DNA from: Candidatus Eiseniibacteriota bacterium
GTDB lineage: Bacteria > Eisenbacteria > RBG-16-71-46 > JABDJR01
NCBI GenBank assembly: GCA_963783375.1
Contig: CAWANH010000028.1
Span: 1,504,001-1,568,000 of the forward strand
DNA length: 64,000 nucleotides
Reading direction: 5' to 3'
Numbering within the stretch: the first letter of the stretch is position 1; each line of letters starts with the position of its first letter. The notes under the pieces are model-generated. The model saw nothing but the letters and a program-made list of their open reading frames with translations. It had not been told where the DNA came from and made no database searches. Position numbers and translations under genes: made by a program. This document shows, in pieces, positions 16,212 to 28,019 of this stretch.

Positions 16212-17585
16212 ATGCCGCTCTCGAACATGGAAACCCCCGCATCCGCGCGTCTCGTCGACGGCTCCCGGGTGGGCGTGGTGGGAGGTGGTCCCGCCGGCTC
16301 TTTCTTCGCGTATTTCCTGCTCACCACCGCCGAGCGACTCGGCATGAGCCTCGACGTCGACCTCTACGAGTACCGGGACTTCGGGAACCTGGCCCCCCTG
16401 GGATGCAACATGTGCGGGGGCATCGTTTCCGAGTCGCTGGTGCAGATGCTGGCCGCCGAGGGCATCGAGCTGCCGCCCTCGGTCATCCAGCGGGGGATCG
16501 ATTCCTACGTGCTCCACATGGACGTGGGAAGCGTACGGATCGACACTCCGATACACGAGATGCGGATCGGGGCGGTGCACCGCGGGGCCGGCCCGAGGGA
16601 CGTCAAGACGCCCCGGTGGGGAAGCTTCGACGGTCATCTCCTCGGTCTGGCGGTGGAGAAGGGGGTGAAGGTCCGGCGCGAGCGCGTGGAGCGGATCACC
16701 GGAGACGGGGACCGGCCGGCGATCGTGAGCCGGGGCGGCGGGTCCCAGACCTACGATCTCGTGGTGGCCGCCGCCGGCGTCAACTCCTCGGTCCAGAAGC
16801 TTCTGGCCGGGACGGACCTCGACTACCAGGCGCCGCGCACCACCAAGACCTTCATCCGCGAGTACTTCCTGGGGGAGGAGGCGATCAACCGCCTCCTGGG
16901 GAGTTCCATGCACGTCTTCCTCCTCAACATTCCCCGGCTCGAGTTCGCCGCGGTCATTCCCAAGGGGGACTACGCCACCGTCTGCCTGTTGGGAGAGGAC
17001 ATCGATACGGAACTCGTGGAGGCCTTCATGCACGCTCCCGAGGTGAGGTCGTGCCTTCCCGCGGATTTCCCGATCGAGGAGCGCTCCTGCCAGTGTTCGC
17101 CCCGGATCAACGTGGCGGGAGCGATCCGCCCCTTCGCGGACCGGATCCTGGTCATCGGCGACGCCGGGGTGACCCGCCTCTACAAGGACGGGATCGGCGC
17201 GGCCTACCGGACGGCCAAGGCCGCGGCCACCACCGCGGTCCTACACGGCGTGTCCGCCGCCGCCTTCGACCGCCACTACTGGCCCACCTGCCGGGCCATC
17301 CTGGACGACAACCGAATCGGGAAGCTCACCTTCGCGGTGACCCGGCAGATCCAGCGCCGCCGTGTGGCCCGGCGGGCCGTCCTTCGGATGACCGTGGACG
17401 AGCAGGGCCGGAAGGGCTCCCGGCGCCGCATGAGCCGGGTGCTCTGGGATGTGTTCACGGGAAGCGCTCCCTACCGGGACATCTTCCTGCGGAGCCTCCA
17501 CCCGTCCTTCCTCGGCCGCTTTGCCTGGGACCTGTGCGCTTCGGTCGTTCCGCTGCGAACGGCCGGTGAGGAGGTGGATCGATGA
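16212..17585 (+). CDS. FAD-dependent oxidoreductase (geranylgeranyl reductase-like fold)
   Basis: VGVVGGGPAG Rossmann motif; GCNMCGG; IGDAG....YKDGIG second FAD motif. Confidence 0.85.
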   Translation: MPLSNMETPASARLVDGSRVGVVGGGPAGSFFAYFLLTTAERLGMSLDVDLYEYRDFGNLAPLGCNMCGGIVSESLVQMLAAEGIELPPSVIQRGIDSYVLHMDVGSVRIDTPIHEMRIGAVHRGAGPRDVKTPRWGSFDGHLLGLAVEKGVKVRRERVERITGDGDRPAIVSRGGGSQTYDLVVAAAGVNSSVQKLLAGTDLDYQAPRTTKTFIREYFLGEEAINRLLGSSMHVFLLNIPRLEFAAVIPKGDYATVCLLGEDIDTELVEAFMHAPEVRSCLPADFPIEERSCQCSPRINVAGAIRPFADRILVIGDAGVTRLYKDGIGAAYRTAKAAATTAVLHGVSAAAFDRHYWPTCRAILDDNRIGKLTFAVTRQIQRRRVARRAVLRMTVDEQGRKGSRRRMSRVLWDVFTGSAPYRDIFLRSLHPSFLGRFAWDLCASVVPLRTAGEEVDR

Positions 17586-17953
17586 GCGGGGATGGTTTGG
17601 GCCGCACCTTCGAGAACGGTGAGGTTATCGTGCGTCAGGGGGAGGAGGGGGACTGCATGTACGTGGTCCAGGAGGGCCAGGTCGAGGTGTACCTGGAGAA
17701 GGAAGGCCGGGAGCTTCCGCTCCGCGTTCTGGGCAAGGGGGAGTTCATCGGGGAGATGAGCATCTTCGAGCGGGAGGTCCGCTCGGCCTCGGTGCGCGCG
17801 GTGGGCAGCGCCCGCCTCCTCACCGTGGATCGGGTGGGGTTTCTCCGCCGCATCCACGAGGATCCCTCCCTGGCCTTCCGCGTCGTGCAGACCCTTTCCC
17901 GGCGGGTCCGCGACCTGAGCGACGAGGTAGCGCGACTTCGGACCGACGGCTGA
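17582..17953 (+). CDS. Stand-alone cyclic nucleotide-binding domain protein
   Basis: QGEEGDCMYVV.EG.V, FIGEMS and RSASVRA phosphate-binding cassette; no HTH. Confidence 0.92.
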   Translation: MSGDGLGRTFENGEVIVRQGEEGDCMYVVQEGQVEVYLEKEGRELPLRVLGKGEFIGEMSIFEREVRSASVRAVGSARLLTVDRVGFLRRIHEDPSLAFRVVQTLSRRVRDLSDEVARLRTDG

Positions 17954-17961
17954 GCGGGGAC

Positions 17962-19005
17962 ATGCCCGAGGCGATCCGCTACGCACCGCTCCCCCCGTCG
18001 GGATCCGGGACCATGGAGCTGGTTCTGGGCGAGGGAACTCCGGAGGAGCGGCGATTTCCCTTCGATGCTCGTCTCCAGATCGGTCGGGGCGTCGGAGGCG
18101 GAACGCCGCTGCCCGGGGTGCTGGCCATCGACGACCCCACGGTTTCCTCCCGCCACTGCGTCCTCAACCGGACTCCCGACGGCCGTTGTTTCGTGCGGGA
18201 CCTGAGCCGGAACGGAACCAAGGTGGACGGCCGGCGCCTGGTCCCGAACGTCGAGGTGGAGCTTCGGGTGGGAGACGTGCTGACGGTGGGGGAGGGGCAC
18301 GCGTTCCGTCTCCGGGGGGACCCGGCGGGAGCCGCCGCGGCCGGCGCCGCGGAATTGCCGGGAACGCTCCTCGCCTCCGGCATCACCGAGGCCACGGTGC
18401 TGGTGGGGGACATACGGGACTACACCCGCCTCATGCGAACGGCCTCCTCCTCGAGTACGCAGCAATCGGTGGTCCGGGTGTTCGCGGAGCTGGAAAAGAA
18501 GGTGGTTGAGTACGGGGGCACGGTCAAGGAGTATCAGGGGGATGCGGTGTTCGCGTTCTGGGAGGAGGGTCCCGCGGCTCCCTCGGCGGCGGCGGCCTGC
18601 CGGGCCGCCCTCGCCCTCGAGGAGGAGGGCCGCCGGTTGGCCGCGAACCGCTCGGTCTGGGACGTGGAGGGATTTCCCCTGGGTCTCGACTGGGCCCTGG
18701 CCACCGGATCGGTGATCATCGCCAGCATGGGAGGCGAGCGGCCGATCGGTCTCTCCATGGTCGGAGAGCCGGTGGTGCGCGCCTTCCGTCTGGAGAAGTT
18801 CGCCGACCGGGAGACCGGGCCGATCCTGGTGTGTCGCACCACCCGGGAGCGGGCGGGGAAGGAGTTCCGGTTCCGCGATCTGGGGGAACGACTGGCCGCC
18901 GGATTCGATGCTCCGGAGCCGATCTACGCCCTCCTGGGTCCGGCCGGGGAGCCGGAACCCGGCAACGACCCGCGTGAGGATACCCTCGGGAGACAAGAAC
19001 CGTGA
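17962..19005 (+). CDS. FHA domain plus class III nucleotidyl cyclase
   Basis: FHA motifs IGR, VSSRH, DLSRNGT; cyclase motifs GDIRDYT, EYQGDAV, VGEPVVRAFRLE. Confidence 0.9.
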   Translation: MPEAIRYAPLPPSGSGTMELVLGEGTPEERRFPFDARLQIGRGVGGGTPLPGVLAIDDPTVSSRHCVLNRTPDGRCFVRDLSRNGTKVDGRRLVPNVEVELRVGDVLTVGEGHAFRLRGDPAGAAAAGAAELPGTLLASGITEATVLVGDIRDYTRLMRTASSSSTQQSVVRVFAELEKKVVEYGGTVKEYQGDAVFAFWEEGPAAPSAAAACRAALALEEEGRRLAANRSVWDVEGFPLGLDWALATGSVIIASMGGERPIGLSMVGEPVVRAFRLEKFADRETGPILVCRTTRERAGKEFRFRDLGERLAAGFDAPEPIYALLGPAGEPEPGNDPREDTLGRQEP

Positions 19006-19787
19006 GGATCCGGATCCTTCCCTCCGCGTCCGAGAGCGCGGCCCAGAACCACTATCTCACCTCGTTCCTGGTGAACGACGAGCTGGCGGTGGACGCCGGC
19101 TCGTTGGGGATCTATCGGGAGCCCCGGGATCAGGCGCGGGTGGATCACGTCTTCCTCACCCATACCCATGCCGATCACATCGGAACCCTCCCGGTGTTCG
19201 TGGGGAACCGTCACGGGTATCCGGTCGACGAGGGAGGGGAAAGCGCGCCGCCGGTGGTGATCCACGGCTCATCCGAAGTGTTGCGCTCGCTCAAGTCCGA
19301 CGTGTTCAACGACCGGGTATGGCCCGACCCCGAGCGGATTTCGGAGCCGGGGCGGCCGATCCTGGTGTTTTCCCCCCTGCACCCCGAGACCCCGGTGGAA
19401 GCGGGGGGGCTTCGGGTCACCCCGGTCCCGGTGGACCACGTGGTGCCGACGATGGGGCTCATCGTGGACGACGGCGTCTCGGCGGTGGTATTCGGCGGGG
19501 ATTCCGGTCCCACCGATCGCATCTGGGAGCTGGCCCGCGGCCTCCCTCATCTCCGCGCGATCTTCCTCGAAGCGACCTTTCCCGACGCGTTGGTCGATCT
19601 GGCCGGCATCACCGGGCACCTGACGCCCCGCCTCTTCCGGGAGGAGGTGTCCAAGTGTCCCGGCCAGGTGGCGGTGGTGGCGGTCCACATCCGACCCCGC
19701 TATCGTCGCGACGTCGAACAGGAGCTTCTGGAACTCGGGATTTCCCGGCTGATCCTGGGCGAGCCCGGCCGGGAGTACCGCTTCTGA
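19002..19787 (+). CDS. 3',5'-cyclic-nucleotide phosphodiesterase (class II, MBL fold)
   Basis: DAGS, THTHADH, FNDRVWPD, VDHVVPT, GDSGPT, EATFP and GHLTP motifs. Confidence 0.9.
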   Translation: MRIRILPSASESAAQNHYLTSFLVNDELAVDAGSLGIYREPRDQARVDHVFLTHTHADHIGTLPVFVGNRHGYPVDEGGESAPPVVIHGSSEVLRSLKSDVFNDRVWPDPERISEPGRPILVFSPLHPETPVEAGGLRVTPVPVDHVVPTMGLIVDDGVSAVVFGGDSGPTDRIWELARGLPHLRAIFLEATFPDALVDLAGITGHLTPRLFREEVSKCPGQVAVVAVHIRPRYRRDVEQELLELGISRLILGEPGREYRF

Positions 19788-20063: not shown

Positions 20064-21233
20064 ATGAAATGGACCACGAGGCGGCTTTGGGCCGTTGGAT
20101 TCTGGAGCGCGGCGGCGACGGCTTTGGTGATCGCGGGGTGCGGGCAGGAAGCCGCCGCGCCGGCCGCCTGGACCGGCTACAACGAGCCGGCGACCGAGAT
20201 GTCGATCGATCTGGCCCGGGTGGACGGGGGGATGAGCGTTGCGGACGAGAGTCCCGGATTCGGGGACGGTTACTTCCGGTCGTTCCTGGGGGACGATCAA
20301 CCGCTTTCGTTTTCGGATCCCTTGGAGCGGGACCCGCGGATGACCGGTCTCGAGAACCGAAACGGAGCCTCCGTTCAATACCTGCGCGTCATCTGGGGAG
20401 ATCTCGAGCGCGGGCCGGAAGCGGCTTCGGGAGACACTTCCGCGGGTTCCGTTCTGGACTGGACCGGCGGGGCCTCGGTGTCCGACGGGCTCCTCCTGCC
20501 GATGGGCACCCTGGGCTTCGAGCGCGCCGACCGGCTCGTCCGGCCCCGAACCGACCGGCAGGTCGTGGAATGGGTCTCCCATACCGGGCCCTGCTGGGAC
20601 GGGGTCATTCTCAAGATCCTGGTGCCCCCGGCACATGACACCACCTTCGCCGCCAATCGCAAGAGCGCCAAGGGAGACGGGTTGACCGCGGACGATCTCT
20701 TCACCTTCACCACCGGACCGCTTACCGTGTCTTTCCCCATCGACGGGATCTCGGATCTCGATTCAACGGTGTGGATCGACGACACCCACGGGGTGAGCTT
20801 CAGTGGATTCGAGCGCGGAGACGTGGATCTCTGCCCCCGGGGCGGGATGCTGGGAGCGTGGGTCGAGGTGGCGGACGATTCCCTTCAGGGCGGGTTCTTC
20901 CGGGCCAAATGGGTCAATCCCCTCGGCCGCCTGCAGGGACAGGTCCGAGGCCGCTGGGGCGTGCTCCCCGACAGCGGGCAGGTCTTCGTGGGCAAGATCA
21001 TCGGCCCCCAGGGGCGCTATCTCGGACACGTCCGGGGCCGGTGGGAAGAGAGTCCCGACCATCCCGGCCACGGCCTCTTCCGCGGAGTCTGGTTCACGGT
21101 CAATCGCGACAGCAGCCGCACCGCGGTGGGGCAGGTGCGCGGGGTCTGGGGGGTGAGCGACCGGGTCGACGACGGAGGATTCCTCCGCGGGTTGTGGATG
21201 AAGGATTGCGCGCGCGACGCGGGCGGCGCCTGA
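20064..21233 (+). CDS. Lipoprotein of unknown function with Gly/Trp beta-repeats
   Basis: GGAGG RBS; lipobox IAGC; repeated GxxxGxW motifs in the C-terminal third. Confidence 0.8.
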   Translation: MKWTTRRLWAVGFWSAAATALVIAGCGQEAAAPAAWTGYNEPATEMSIDLARVDGGMSVADESPGFGDGYFRSFLGDDQPLSFSDPLERDPRMTGLENRNGASVQYLRVIWGDLERGPEAASGDTSAGSVLDWTGGASVSDGLLLPMGTLGFERADRLVRPRTDRQVVEWVSHTGPCWDGVILKILVPPAHDTTFAANRKSAKGDGLTADDLFTFTTGPLTVSFPIDGISDLDSTVWIDDTHGVSFSGFERGDVDLCPRGGMLGAWVEVADDSLQGGFFRAKWVNPLGRLQGQVRGRWGVLPDSGQVFVGKIIGPQGRYLGHVRGRWEESPDHPGHGLFRGVWFTVNRDSSRTAVGQVRGVWGVSDRVDDGGFLRGLWMKDCARDAGGA

Positions 21234-23359: not shown

Positions 23360-24652
23360 ATGGCGAAACACGGCGGAAGTTTCGCTCCGGCAACGTTCCG
23401 GATCCTGGCCGGCCTCCTCGCGATCCTGTCGCTCCTGGTCCCTCTCGCACCGGGGGCCCAGACCCGGACGGTCTGGGACAAGTTCCGCCGTGGGCCGACC
23501 GGCCCCATCGTCTACCCGGAGATCCAGGTCGAGGCGGCGTGGTTGCGGGAGCATCTCGACCGGGTGCGGGTCGTGGACGCGCGGGAGGGCGGCCGGTTCG
23601 CCCGGGGGCATGTCCCCGGCGCGGCGTCCTTTCCGTCCGCATCCTTCGACGGCGATCCGTGGCGCCTGGCCGACCTCCTGGCTCACGCGGGCGTTCCCTC
23701 CGAGGGAACCGTGGTGTGCGTATCCGACCGTGAGGATCCCGCCGCCGCGGGTCGTCTCTTCTGGATCCTGGAACTGGCGGGCCAGGGCGACCCCCGGGTT
23801 CTGGACGGCGGGCTCGAAGCCTGGATCGCCGCCGCCGGGGACCTCGAGCGCGGGGCGAAGGCGCCTCCCTCCGCCGCCTTCCGCGCCGCTCCCGACACCT
23901 CCCGGATCGCCGACTATGCGTACGTGAAGGCGTGTTTCGGAACTCCGAGGGCCAACGTGCTCGATTGGCGGGCGGCTCAGGTCTGGGCCGACGGCCACAT
24001 CCCGCACAGCCTGCCCTTTCCACTCGGTGAGCTGGTCACCGGTGAAGGGCGGATCCTCTCCGGGAAGGCCATGCGACCGCTCTTCGAGCAATGGGGCCCG
24101 AGGCCTCGGGAGACCGTCGACCTCTCCGCGGAGCTGATCGTGTGCGGGGACGCGCCCCCGGGAGCGGTGCCGGTGGATCCCTACTTCGCCGCCCGGCTGG
24201 CGGGTATCGAGCACGTCCGGGTCTATCCGGAAGGGTTCGCGGGCTGGCGCGCCCACGGCGACGCCCCCGTGGTCCGGCTCGTCAACGCGGAGGAGGTGAG
24301 GCGCGACCTGCATCGCGAGTGGAAGGGGACGCTGCGTGATCTCCCTCCTCCCGACCTCATCCTCTTCGACGTTCGGGGGGAGCGGGACTATCTCTCCGGC
24401 CATCTTCCCGGGGCGGTTAACCTCGCCCCCCACCTCTTCGAGGCGCAGCTCGAGGGCACGGTGGCCGCCTTCTGGCCCGGTGCGGACCGGTCCACCATCC
24501 CGGTGGTGTTCTATTGCTACGGCCCCGGCTGCACCCGGAGCCGGAACTGCTCCACCATGGCCGCCCGGCACGGGTTCCAGAATCTCCTCTGGTTCAAGGA
24601 CGGGACCGCGGGGTGGAGAAGCGCGGGCGAAGAGCTGGTGCGGGGGCGTTGA
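23360..24652 (+). CDS. Exported multi-domain rhodanese/sulfurtransferase
   Basis: Three rhodanese repeats (GHVPGA, GHIPHS, GHLPGA); YCYGPGC loop in the last domain; N-terminal signal. Confidence 0.88.
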   Translation: MAKHGGSFAPATFRILAGLLAILSLLVPLAPGAQTRTVWDKFRRGPTGPIVYPEIQVEAAWLREHLDRVRVVDAREGGRFARGHVPGAASFPSASFDGDPWRLADLLAHAGVPSEGTVVCVSDREDPAAAGRLFWILELAGQGDPRVLDGGLEAWIAAAGDLERGAKAPPSAAFRAAPDTSRIADYAYVKACFGTPRANVLDWRAAQVWADGHIPHSLPFPLGELVTGEGRILSGKAMRPLFEQWGPRPRETVDLSAELIVCGDAPPGAVPVDPYFAARLAGIEHVRVYPEGFAGWRAHGDAPVVRLVNAEEVRRDLHREWKGTLRDLPPPDLILFDVRGERDYLSGHLPGAVNLAPHLFEAQLEGTVAAFWPGADRSTIPVVFYCYGPGCTRSRNCSTMAARHGFQNLLWFKDGTAGWRSAGEELVRGR

Positions 24653-25691: not shown

Positions 25692-28019
25692 TTGGCGAAT
25701 CTCGTAAGCCGCTACGCCCACTGGCTCCACACCCGCTGGCCGGCGGGGACGGTGGAGAAGCTCCCCGAAGTCGCCGGGGACGGCCGGACCGCGGTGCCCG
25801 GTCTCTACGTGACCGGCGACCTCACCGGAATCCCCCTCCTCAAGTTCTCCCTGGACAGCGGGGCCCGGGCGGCCCGGCGGATCGCCGAGGAGCTCGGCTC
25901 CTCGCCCCGGCAAGGCGACCTCCTCGACGTGGCGATCGTGGGGGCGGGGGTCTCGGGCATGGCCGCGGCCATGGAGTGCCGCCGGAGGGGCCTCGGGTTC
26001 CGGGTGCTGGAGTCCGCCGAGACCTTCTTCACGATCGTGAACTTTCCCCGCCGCAAACCCATCTACACCTACCCCCGGGCGATGGAGCCGGCCGGGGACC
26101 TCCAGGTCCGGGCCGAGGTGAAGGAGGATCTCCTGGAGGAGCTTCGGGCCCAGGTGCGCGACGCAGGGATCGAGGTCGAGCCCGCCCGCGCCCTCTCGGT
26201 CCGCCGCGCCGCCGGGGCGCTGGAGGTGATGCTGGCCGAGGGCGAGCCGGTCCGGGCCCGCAGGGTCATCGTGGCCATCGGCCGGAACGGGGAGTTCCGC
26301 CGGCTCGGGGTACCCGGAGAGGATCTCGACACGGTCTCCAACCGCCTTCACGATCCCGCCGATTTCGCCGGGAAGCGGACGCTGGTGGTGGGAGGGGGAG
26401 ACAGCGCGCTCGAGGCCGTCGTCGCCCTGGCCCGGGCGGGGGCGCGGGTGGCCTTGAGTTACCGGGGGAACGAGCTCTCCCGGCCCAAGCCGGTGAACGT
26501 GGAGATGGTCCAGGCCCTGGCTGCGGGGAAGAGCGTGGGGGAGGCCCGCGCGCGGGTCGAACGCCCCAGCTCGGAGCGGGTCGCCGCCGCCGCGGACGAC
26601 TTCGCGGGAGCGGCGCCCTTCGCCGGGACCGTGGAGCTCCTGCTCGGGAGCCGGGTGAAGGAGATCCGGCCGGGGGAGGCGGTCATCGAGGCCTCGGAGG
26701 GCGAGCGCCGGATCGAAAACGATGCGGTATTCGTCATGATCGGCCGGGAAGCCCCCCTCGACTTCTTCCGCCGAAGCGGGATCCCGGTGGCGGGAGAGAT
26801 GCGGGCCCGGAACTGGGCCGCGCTCTCGGCCTTCGTGCTCTTCTGCGTCTGGCTCTACAACTGGAAGTCGGGCGGGTTCCTGGCCCGGCTCTGGGAGGGG
26901 CACGGCTGGTTCCCCTACGGCCTGGCCGGGGCGGCGGAACGTTGGGTCGCCGATCCCCATTCCCTGGCCGGGGTGACGGTCCACTCCGCGCTCGGGCATC
27001 CGTCCTTCTGGTACACCCTGGCCTACTCCACGGTGGTGGTGCTCTTCGGCATCCGGCGGATCCGGCGCCGCCGGACCCCCTACGTCACCGTCCAGACCGT
27101 GACCCTGGCGGTCATCCAGGTGGTGCCGCTGTTCCTCCTACCCGAGATCATTCTCCCGTGGCTGAACTACCACGGCTGGCTTCCCCAGGGGCTGGCCGAC
27201 GCGCTCTTCCCCCAGGTGAGCTACGGTCACGGACGGGAGTTCTGGCGGGCCTACGGACTGGTTCTGGCCTGGCCGCTCAACGTCTACAACGTGTTCACCC
27301 CCCACCCGCTCCCGGCGTGGTTGGTCATCTGCGGGGTCCAGACCCTGGTGCTCATCCCGGCCGCGATCTTCTTCTTCGGAAAGGGGGCCTACTGCGGGTG
27401 GATCTGCTCCTGCGGGGCCCTGGCTGAGACCCTGGGAGACGGCTTCCGCCACAAGATGCCCCACGGACCGCGGTGGAATCGCCTGAACATGCTGGGGCAG
27501 GGGGTGCTCCTGGTCGCGGTGCTCCTGTTGCTGCTCCGCATCGCGGGTTGGATCTTCCCCGGCGTGGGTTGGCTGCAGGCGGTGTTCAACGTGGCCCTGG
27601 ACGGCGGCGGAACCCATTGGCCGAGCTACAAGTGGACGGTGGACGTGTTCCTGGCCGGGGTCCTGGGCTACGGGCTCTATTTCTGGTTCTCGGGCCGCAT
27701 GTGGTGCCGCTTCGCCTGCCCCCTGGCCGCGCTCATGCACATCTACGCCCGGTTCAGCCGCTTCCGGATCTTCGCCGAGAAGAAGAAGTGCATCTCCTGC
27801 AACGTCTGCACCTCGGTCTGCCACCAGGGGATCGACGTCATGAGCTTCGCCAACAAGGGGCTTCCCATGCAGGATCCCGAATGCGTGCGCTGTTCCGCCT
27901 GCGTCCAGAGCTGCCCCACCGGGGTGCTCTATTTCGGGCGGGTGGACGCCGCGGGACGGCCGGCCGCGGTGGACCGGCTCGCCGCCTCGCCGGTGCGGAT
28001 GCGCGAGGGGGACGGCTGA
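25692..28019 (+). CDS. FAD/NAD(P)-binding oxidoreductase fused to a membrane 4Fe-4S polyferredoxin
   Basis: GAGVSG and GGGDSA dinucleotide motifs; multiple TM helices; CGWICSCG, CRFACP, CISCNVCTSVC, CVRCSACVQSCP. Confidence 0.88.
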   Translation: MANLVSRYAHWLHTRWPAGTVEKLPEVAGDGRTAVPGLYVTGDLTGIPLLKFSLDSGARAARRIAEELGSSPRQGDLLDVAIVGAGVSGMAAAMECRRRGLGFRVLESAETFFTIVNFPRRKPIYTYPRAMEPAGDLQVRAEVKEDLLEELRAQVRDAGIEVEPARALSVRRAAGALEVMLAEGEPVRARRVIVAIGRNGEFRRLGVPGEDLDTVSNRLHDPADFAGKRTLVVGGGDSALEAVVALARAGARVALSYRGNELSRPKPVNVEMVQALAAGKSVGEARARVERPSSERVAAAADDFAGAAPFAGTVELLLGSRVKEIRPGEAVIEASEGERRIENDAVFVMIGREAPLDFFRRSGIPVAGEMRARNWAALSAFVLFCVWLYNWKSGGFLARLWEGHGWFPYGLAGAAERWVADPHSLAGVTVHSALGHPSFWYTLAYSTVVVLFGIRRIRRRRTPYVTVQTVTLAVIQVVPLFLLPEIILPWLNYHGWLPQGLADALFPQVSYGHGREFWRAYGLVLAWPLNVYNVFTPHPLPAWLVICGVQTLVLIPAAIFFFGKGAYCGWICSCGALAETLGDGFRHKMPHGPRWNRLNMLGQGVLLVAVLLLLLRIAGWIFPGVGWLQAVFNVALDGGGTHWPSYKWTVDVFLAGVLGYGLYFWFSGRMWCRFACPLAALMHIYARFSRFRIFAEKKKCISCNVCTSVCHQGIDVMSFANKGLPMQDPECVRCSACVQSCPTGVLYFGRVDAAGRPAAVDRLAASPVRMREGDG

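Follow-up and report, generated by a model that had tools for sequence, protein, structure and literature searches.

A conserved, modular cyclic-nucleotide cassette in an Eisenbacteria genome, with a flavoenzyme as its likely output

Can four adjacent bacterial genes hold a signalling circuit in which a cyclic nucleotide acts directly on a redox enzyme? The question is raised by a cassette in a 64,000-nucleotide stretch from a Candidatus Eiseniibacteriota bacterium (contig CAWANH010000028.1, positions 1,504,001 to 1,568,000; hereafter the window), which an original prediction, made from the bare sequence, had read as a flavoenzyme with the writer, reader and eraser of a cyclic nucleoside monophosphate (cNMP). 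The present analysis finds a real, conserved and modular cyclic-nucleotide circuit, shared by several lineages of uncultured bacteria, with the flavoenzyme as its likely output. The genes, in window coordinates, are as follows.

16212-17585, + strand: gene A, FAD-type oxidoreductase with a fold like that of geranylgeranyl reductase (GGR) and FixC, the proposed output enzyme; 457 amino acids
17582-17953, + strand: gene B, stand-alone cNMP-binding protein, predicted regulatory subunit of A; 123 amino acids
17962-19005, + strand: gene C, FHA domain, disordered linker and class III nucleotidyl cyclase; 347 amino acids
19002-19787, + strand: gene D, candidate class II-type cNMP phosphodiesterase of metallo-beta-lactamase (MBL) fold; 261 amino acids

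The open reading frames bear out the co-oriented arrangement originally described, with an ATGA overlap between A and B (17582-17585), an 8-nucleotide gap between B and C (17954-17961) and a GTGA overlap between C and D (19002-19005), and each gene is single-copy in its own genome. Domains and motifs of A, B and D fit the predicted biochemical roles of flavoenzyme, reader and eraser, while the putative writer C is atypical in that the canonical Asn of its class is missing.

The mechanism that we propose, to which we give an even chance in its entirety, is a local relay of cyclic GMP (cGMP) from a phospho-controlled C to A by way of a docked B. Ser/Thr phosphorylation would control C, whether by activation or by inhibition; C would make cGMP; cGMP would bind B; and B, which is modelled as a dimer sitting on A, would switch the redox activity of A allosterically until D ends the signal. 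Switching would be direct, through the docked receptor and not through gene expression, and A would reduce a small molecule of hydrophobic or aromatic character with the help of FAD and, possibly, of a metal or dithiol site built from its four cysteines. A broader reading, which we hold tentatively and at somewhat less than even chance, is that the cassette represents an undescribed bacterial cGMP pathway ending in a redox enzyme: the threonine in the linker of an FHA-guanylyl cyclase would be the target of eukaryote-type Ser/Thr kinases, a PKG-like, guanine-selective, stand-alone cyclic-nucleotide-binding (CNB) dimer would serve as trans regulatory subunit of a new family of four-cysteine, possibly metal-binding flavoenzymes, and other lineages would plug in cyclases making cyclic AMP (cAMP). 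The bacterial cGMP receptors described so far are few, most of them transcription factors, c-di-GMP enzymes or defence effectors (PMC10187061, PMC3770947, bioRxiv 10.64898/2026.08.12.744502). A literature search returned no paper on this cassette and, as originally supposed, no described system of its composition, with most subscription papers outside its reach; the supplementary table of cyclase contexts in the Pucsar preprint might list these loci. Consisting of four small soluble proteins, the cassette lends itself to tests of whether a cyclic nucleotide can act directly on a redox enzyme of metabolism, whether a bacterial CNB protein can serve as a subunit in trans, and whether an FHA domain can pass signals from Ser/Thr kinases on to cGMP. 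It also bears on whether an Asn-less class III cyclase can be active, opens a large unannotated flavoprotein family, and offers in B a natural Arg/Ala switch as a handle on the co-evolution of nucleotide selectivity with the cyclase.

The flavoenzyme-receptor core

Counts given here come from a survey of 206 genomes of the window's phylum and from metagenome loci, the best 80 of 535 matches. Among the genomes A is carried by 11 and B by the identical 11, and the order A-B-C is retained in all 10 other carriers of A; since the variable slot that the cassette occupies, between a sigma-54 regulator gene and the next gene, is also empty in two close relatives (G049 and G051; G048 has a different gene there), the grouping is more than chance. 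At 75 of the 80 metagenome loci B comes straight after A in the same orientation, 14 of them having both in a single open reading frame; of the other five, one has B on the opposite strand and four are misses, three of which end 170 nucleotides or less from the contig end. Fusions of A with B also make up 10 of the best 120 homologs. Full-strength C (above 200 bits) occurs in 13 of the 206 genomes and orthologs of D (above 400 bits) in six, and an orthologous C follows B in 12 of the 52 metagenome loci having at least 600 nucleotides beyond B, with a phosphodiesterase after C in three of those 12. Because B comes after A nearly everywhere, while C and D follow in a minority of loci, A and B are a fixed core unit and C and D are accessory.

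The four genes do co-occur elsewhere, as the neighbourhood search found the complete order in six of the 206 genomes, from five families (G000, G037, G061, G097, G175 and, split over two contigs, G050). The idea of a self-contained four-gene system therefore stands for one lineage but gives way, beyond it, to a wider and more modular family. One genome (G042) has an A-B fusion, then C, then a different MBL hydrolase, and among 14 named GTDB loci seven show A-B-C (six labelled Acidobacteriota or Thermoanaerobaculia, and one duplicating G050), one has A-B with another cyclase and six, from Chloroflexota, have A alone. Unrelated cyclases (GAF-, CHASE2-, AAA/TPR- and another FHA-cyclase) stand at 13 of the 80 metagenome loci and at L007, on several branches, four of them being of Lys type, and other MBL hydrolases at L019, L068, L077 and L085. 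Judged from these sequences, the A-B pair has recruited cyclases on several branches of the tree (116 rows, quick method, midpoint root).

Physical contact between receptor and oxidoreductase had been raised in the original prediction, and complex modelling supports it. Modelled together with two copies of B, FAD and cAMP, A gave a complex score of 0.84, where the best of three controls had 0.00; among solved complexes 116 of 157 came up to the mark, and among mismatched pairs two of 215, counts that are only rough for this model given its own alignments and ligands. Runs shared at least 83% of contacts, and the predicted local distance difference test (pLDDT) of the partner was at least 86. 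Memory of a like complex is unlikely, since A has no sequence match among solved structures, though A and B also occur in nature joined in one protein. The modelled interface comprises A residues 75-95, 114-120 and 333-345 and B residues 3-8, 28, 30 and 80-100. Q78, G84, R118 and K336 of A are invariant in 92 B-linked A proteins, while proteins in which A is joined in tandem to a paralog, A', mostly lose Q78, R118 and K336 (kept in 4, 3 and 2 of 25). Positions of A conserved to at least 90% in B-linked loci were lost in tandem or other fusions at 9 of 13 interface positions against 37 of 135 others, an enrichment whose force is reduced in that it assumes independent positions and pools surface with buried sites. 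Six B-less Chloroflexota A proteins form one clade with G95E/N and E116G/A-type changes at contact sites, and no B ortholog was found in the two genomes of that clade that were checked; counted as one event, this is no more than suggestive. Taken together, a physical and cNMP-related partnership of A with B is very probable. In the model B docks on helix 74-82 of A, directly after the Cys65-x-x-Cys68 loop, and from this placement it is reasonable to infer that B controls the flavin site allosterically; it counts as a debit for the mechanism that cAMP was the only nucleotide modelled and that the model is silent on gating.

The reader's predicted lack of a DNA-binding domain held up. B, at 123 amino acids, matches cNMP_binding and no other Pfam family (86.9 bits, residues 8-92), has no helix-turn-helix and ends after a CRP-like C-helix, with 59 bits to NCBIfam CRP against a cut-off of 266. 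A CRP/FNR-type transcription factor was rejected for want of the C-terminal helix-turn-helix domain. Its best full-length single-domain solved match is Bd1971 of Bdellovibrio (89 bits, positions 12-111), a CNB-EAL phosphodiesterase likewise controlled directly by a CRP-like C-helix dimer without helix-turn-helix (PMC6717892), with which B shares Glu58, Met59, Arg67, Ser68 and Arg108. In Bd1971 the output is a c-di-GMP phosphodiesterase fused to the sensor (PMC6717892); the cassette differs in having a flavoenzyme in that place, a sensor that is mostly a protein of its own, and a cyclase and a phosphodiesterase within the operon. By analogy with Bd1971 or with Xanthomonas XC_0249/XC_0250, the cassette may work by CNB control of an enzyme. 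The cGMP-responsive operons gcyB-gcyC-cgrA of Rhodospirillum centenum and Clr of Sinorhizobium also co-encode a cyclase with a CRP-like receptor, their receptors being transcription factors (PMC10187061), unlike B. Four A proteins (P0127, P0130, P0234, L103) are fused to two tandem CNB domains, and P0200 joins an A fragment to CNB and GGDEF-like domains.

The nucleotide

Which nucleotide would B read? It is probably cGMP, given Glu at the base-selecting site of the cyclase together with a PKG-like Arg in strand beta5 of B. The residues concerned are listed here.

18529-18531, + strand: Glu190 of C, base-selecting position four residues before Asp194; in 120/120 homologs
17720-17725, + strand: Leu47-Arg48 of B, strand beta5; aligns with Leu472-Arg473 of the PfPKG CNB-D domain
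17750-17788, + strand: phosphate-binding cassette of B, Gly57-Glu58-Met59 ... Arg67-Ser68-Ala69; intact, with Bd1971 equivalents named in PMC6717892

Residue counts for C refer to 120 aligned homologs. Its FHA domain is matched by Pfam at 52.8 bits, PF00211 does not detect its cyclase domain, and a 16-sequence family profile of that domain matches CyaB (E 7e-24) and Cya2, with a fold similarity (TM score) of 0.82 to CyaB by target length. At the two base-selecting positions C has Glu190 and, in 115 of 120, Ser265, as predicted of a guanylyl cyclase; Glu-Cys/Ser or Glu-Gly pairs are reported guanylyl cyclase marks (PMC6005667), and cGMP-making PfPucC has Glu118 and Asp122 at the spacing of Glu190 and Asp194 (bioRxiv 10.64898/2026.08.12.744502). 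The PfPKG residues aligned with Leu47-Arg48 are reported guanine-recognising contacts (PMC4412288, PMC3765643). PKG cGMP-selective domains share with B both the beta5 Leu-Arg and the Arg-Ser/Thr of the cassette, and differ in belonging to a eukaryotic kinase whose capping residues are not comparable, where B has a CRP-like C-helix (PMC4412288, PMC3765643). The phosphate-binding cassette of B is nearly invariant across 80 loci, and a capping Arg is present.

An alternative, which we consider unlikely, keeps the wiring but has cAMP, or both purine nucleotides, as the signal, with Glu190 and Arg48 as lineage traits without strict selectivity. It is consistent with the A-B pairs that adjoin canonical Lys-type adenylyl cyclases (L077, L085, L096, L068) and carry the same phosphate cassette in B, with the equally invariant Lys189 next to Glu190, and with the reported binding of both nucleotides by Clr and Bd1971, the Arg-Ser cassette being also the motif of CAP and Bd1971. 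The ungapped alignment, however, places Glu190, and not Lys189, on the Glu of Cya2 and the Lys of CyaB, and Arg48 switches with cyclase type, being present at 29 of 31 C-linked loci, none of four Lys-type, one of 10 with other cyclases and five of 35 with no cyclase.

For cGMP itself several observations count as debits, the breadth of Bd1971 and Clr among them. Arg at beta5 is not confined to B, about 8 of 23 unrelated CNB domains from relatives having it too (scored by eye; 0 of 8 among script-scored ones), which makes Arg48 weak on its own. C has Gly where Cya2 has Lys, two residues before the second specificity residue. Furthermore all C-linked loci fall within one weakly supported clade (39 rows, Shimodaira-Hasegawa-like approximate likelihood ratio test 81), so that the match of Glu190 with Arg48 may be a single inherited event.

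The flavoenzyme as output

What A does is suggested by its fold and its cysteines. A matches FAD-oxidoreductase families weakly, and solved structures searched by sequence gave nothing at E 0.001, whether A by itself or a close alignment was the query; its model (pLDDT 85.4) matches Ta0516 (Z 30.0, root-mean-square deviation 3.4, 362 aligned), FixC (Z 28.6, deviation 3.1, 337 aligned) and Sulfolobus GGR (Z 27.3). With the GGR/FixC/halogenase superfamily it shares the fold and the GxGxxG and GD flavin motifs; it stands apart from the members by an identity of 14-20%, by four conserved cysteines and a predicted CNB docking surface, and by the lack of fixABX neighbours. Three named functions were rejected: geranylgeranyl reductase, although the fold is shared, as TIGR02032 (a GGR subfamily) gives 54.9 bits, under the 158.8 cut-off; FixC (Fix/EtfABCX), as no fixA, fixB or fixX is among neighbours called or scanned; and flavin-dependent halogenase, as the aligned segment reads FAAxIP instead of WxWxIP. 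WxWxIP is the halogenase motif by name, and a matching segment is visible in the PltA and Mpy16 rows. The family comprises 986 clusters at 50% identity (E 1e-10), and an Atlas query with a homologue, P0013, returned only clusters named automatically as FAD-oxidoreductase or hypothetical, one of them an 86-member cNMP-fused cluster. The cysteine pairs lie at two sites.

16404-16415, + strand: Cys65-x-x-Cys68 of A, first cysteine pair; invariant in 80/80
17088-17096, + strand: Cys293-x-Cys295 of A, second cysteine pair; invariant in 73 sequences, with identities as low as about 30%

The full set of four cysteines is kept by all 92 of the B-linked members, by 24 of 25 tandem ones and by 53 of 61 distant single ones; none of five A' paralogs has it. 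Among distant members, the fusion partners are a cysteine-poor second copy (A'), NDH-2-like NAD(P)H oxidoreductase domains and DUF7530, the last two each in 5 of the 42 proteins scanned, and a Fer4_20/Pyr_redox flavoprotein lies close to A-B in five loci. Since B-less relatives with the same core are fused to NAD(P)H-oxidoreductase domains, A fits an enzyme that needs electrons, and we infer a reductase using an external donor, with a possible four-cysteine metal or dithiol site.

The four invariant cysteines could instead be those of a redox sensor. It could be that B is a structural or chaperone-like subunit, or that A and B form a sensor tuning the nucleotide binding of B, or C, with no small-molecule substrate, and this we rate as quite unlikely. 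That no substrate-pathway genes were found conserved beside the cassette in the compared loci would fit, as would the degenerate phosphate cassette of some fused B domains (Gln or His for Arg67). The near-invariance of that cassette across the 80 loci, the electron-donor fusions of B-less relatives and the repeated recruitment of cyclases and hydrolases all speak against it.

Some further patterns concern A. A DUF2867 NAD(P)-binding gene lies near it, on either strand, in 18 of 103 loci (L004-L006, L014, L025, L031-L038, L040, L063, L068, L074, L081, L082), and its product is a possible functional partner; SRPBCC, DUF1990 and photolyase genes recur near A at a few other loci. The paralog A' adjoins or is tandem-fused with A in 25 of the representative set (L013:4389-5639, L051:841-2091, L044, L027-L029; P0140-P0177), which suggests A/A' heterodimers in lineages without B, and in family f12 it sits between groEL and an aminotransferase-folB-folK-panBC block. 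At a single locus (L026:8419-9795, G056) a 36%-identical four-cysteine relative of A is directly upstream of a haem-biosynthesis block with ccsA-like, siroheme synthase and hemA/C/D-like genes. In one locus (L015:6001-7320) A is frameshifted into four pieces, and in another (L055:5825-6382) D is broken by a stop, through assembly error or decay.

Phospho-control, cyclase activity and the setting of the locus

How would phosphorylation reach the cyclase? FHA readers carry the motifs Gly-Arg, Ser-x-x-His and Asn-Gly, and the phosphothreonine-pocket residues of C (Arg42, Ser62, His65, Asn84, Gly85) are each present in 120/120. A candidate ligand lies in the linker.

18364-18366, + strand: Thr135 of C, in the hypervariable linker, candidate phosphosite and FHA ligand; 119/120 homologs

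Thr135 stands exactly 15 residues before Asp150 in 118 of 120 while its neighbours vary freely, and the monomer model leaves linker residues 123-139 unordered. By analogy with GarA and OdhI, Thr135 in its phosphorylated linker may be a phosphosite read by the FHA domain of C itself, in cis or across a cyclase dimer. Of 22 C-linked loci that are 7 kb or longer, 11 have a kinase or PP2C gene, compared with one of 28 A-B loci lacking C, an enrichment that may be a single inherited event, as the C-linked loci fall within one clade, and that kinase-rich genomes confound.

The mechanism is further burdened by the state of C and by the looseness of its ties. Where the canonical Asn should stand, 114 of 120 homologs have Val, and Asn is absent from the five residue types listed; cyclase activity of this atypical, Asn-less protein is accordingly putative. 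C occurs without A or B in G039, a 99% complete genome, where it lies beside GAF-like and peptidase-like genes with a Ser/Thr kinase nearby (L110:7344-9880), and also at a contig edge in G020. D does not adjoin C in five of 11 genomes, four of which (family f12) have no match to D at E 1e-25.

From the altered site one might suppose that C is a degenerate or very weak cyclase serving as phospho-dependent scaffold or GTP sensor while A-B answers a nucleotide from elsewhere, as would suit both the Val in place of Asn and the failure of PF00211 to detect C. This seems very unlikely, as both metal residues, Asp150 and Asp194, are kept in 120/120, as in a class III fold, and Arg276 in 119/120, and a PF00211 scan of the cassette's own 97%-complete genome gave zero matches elsewhere. 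Loss of the Asn need not be fatal, since XC_0250 is reported, in a single report, as active with Asn and Arg both replaced (PMC3770947). That Asn-less, atypical class III guanylyl cyclase likewise adjoins a CNB-controlled enzyme, XC_0249; its effector, by contrast, is a CNB-GGDEF fusion, and the covered parts of PMC3770947 mention no FHA control, class II phosphodiesterase or redox enzyme.

D exceeds the cut-offs for Lactamase_B_2 and PDEase_II, its best solved match is yeast PDE1 (E 1.7e-12), and its HxHxDH at residues 54-59 and later His/Asp ligands are intact, as predicted for a class II phosphodiesterase. Assignment to Apyc1 was rejected (NF041851, 36.6 bits against a cut-off of 400). D-like genes lie at other places in G039 and G008, and in the latter, which lacks A, a different stand-alone CNB protein of 126 amino acids adjoins a class II phosphodiesterase-like gene (L113:6291-7348).

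The Pycsar comparison in the original prediction survives as an analogy of cyclase and CNB reader and fails as membership: B is a CNB domain only, and no TIR or 3TM effector is present in the cassette or was called in homologous loci, so that Pycsar/Pucsar was rejected. PADLOC gave domain-level hits to PycC and PycTIR, which cover only shared CNB and cyclase domains (19-47 bits; C against PycC 19-41, with CyaB and Cya2 its best solved matches). The systems share a class III cyclase with a CNB-based effector (PMC9117128; bioRxiv 10.64898/2026.08.12.744502), and the Pucsar cyclase, with Glu four residues before its second Asp, makes cGMP; their effectors are CNB-TIR or 3TM proteins, "FHA" occurs 0 times in the main text of the Pucsar preprint, and the cassette for its part has a host-encoded eraser and a conserved redox enzyme. 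An anti-phage system of this kind, with cGMP made upon infection, A serving as a toxic effector (e.g. by NAD(P)H drain or reactive oxygen) and D as a safety valve, would suit the domain-level hits, the patchy presence in 11 of 206 genomes (1/89 and 1/41 in two families), the clean variable slot and the use of cGMP as anti-phage messenger, rarely with oxidative enzymes, in Pucsar (bioRxiv 10.64898/2026.08.12.744502), but it is highly improbable given the missing effectors, the slow evolution of A (54-66% identity across phyla), 25 flanking proteins that matched only generic PADLOC domains (kinase, ATPase, deaminase, amylase, protease), and the absence of relatives of A from a plasmid collection and from viral contigs, where 32 pattern matches yielded none confirmed.

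The own genome has four cNMP_binding and 25 Pkinase matches. GC (0.68-0.70) and GC at third codon positions (0.84-0.89) across the cassette match the flanks, and its repeats look like chance matches; these features give no sign of a recent mobile element. A promoter search found none of sigma-70 type at the cassette, and one terminator-like site lies inside gene A, against 2.2 expected by shuffling. Elsewhere in the window, a 775-amino-acid fusion of a pyridine nucleotide-disulphide oxidoreductase domain with membrane segments and 4Fe-4S domains (25692-28019), near a multi-rhodanese gene (23360-24652), is unlinked to the cassette in the relatives examined. The right border of the variable slot is formed by a secreted lipoprotein-like protein (20064-21233) that is without Pfam or NCBIfam match and is present in all five family relatives tested.

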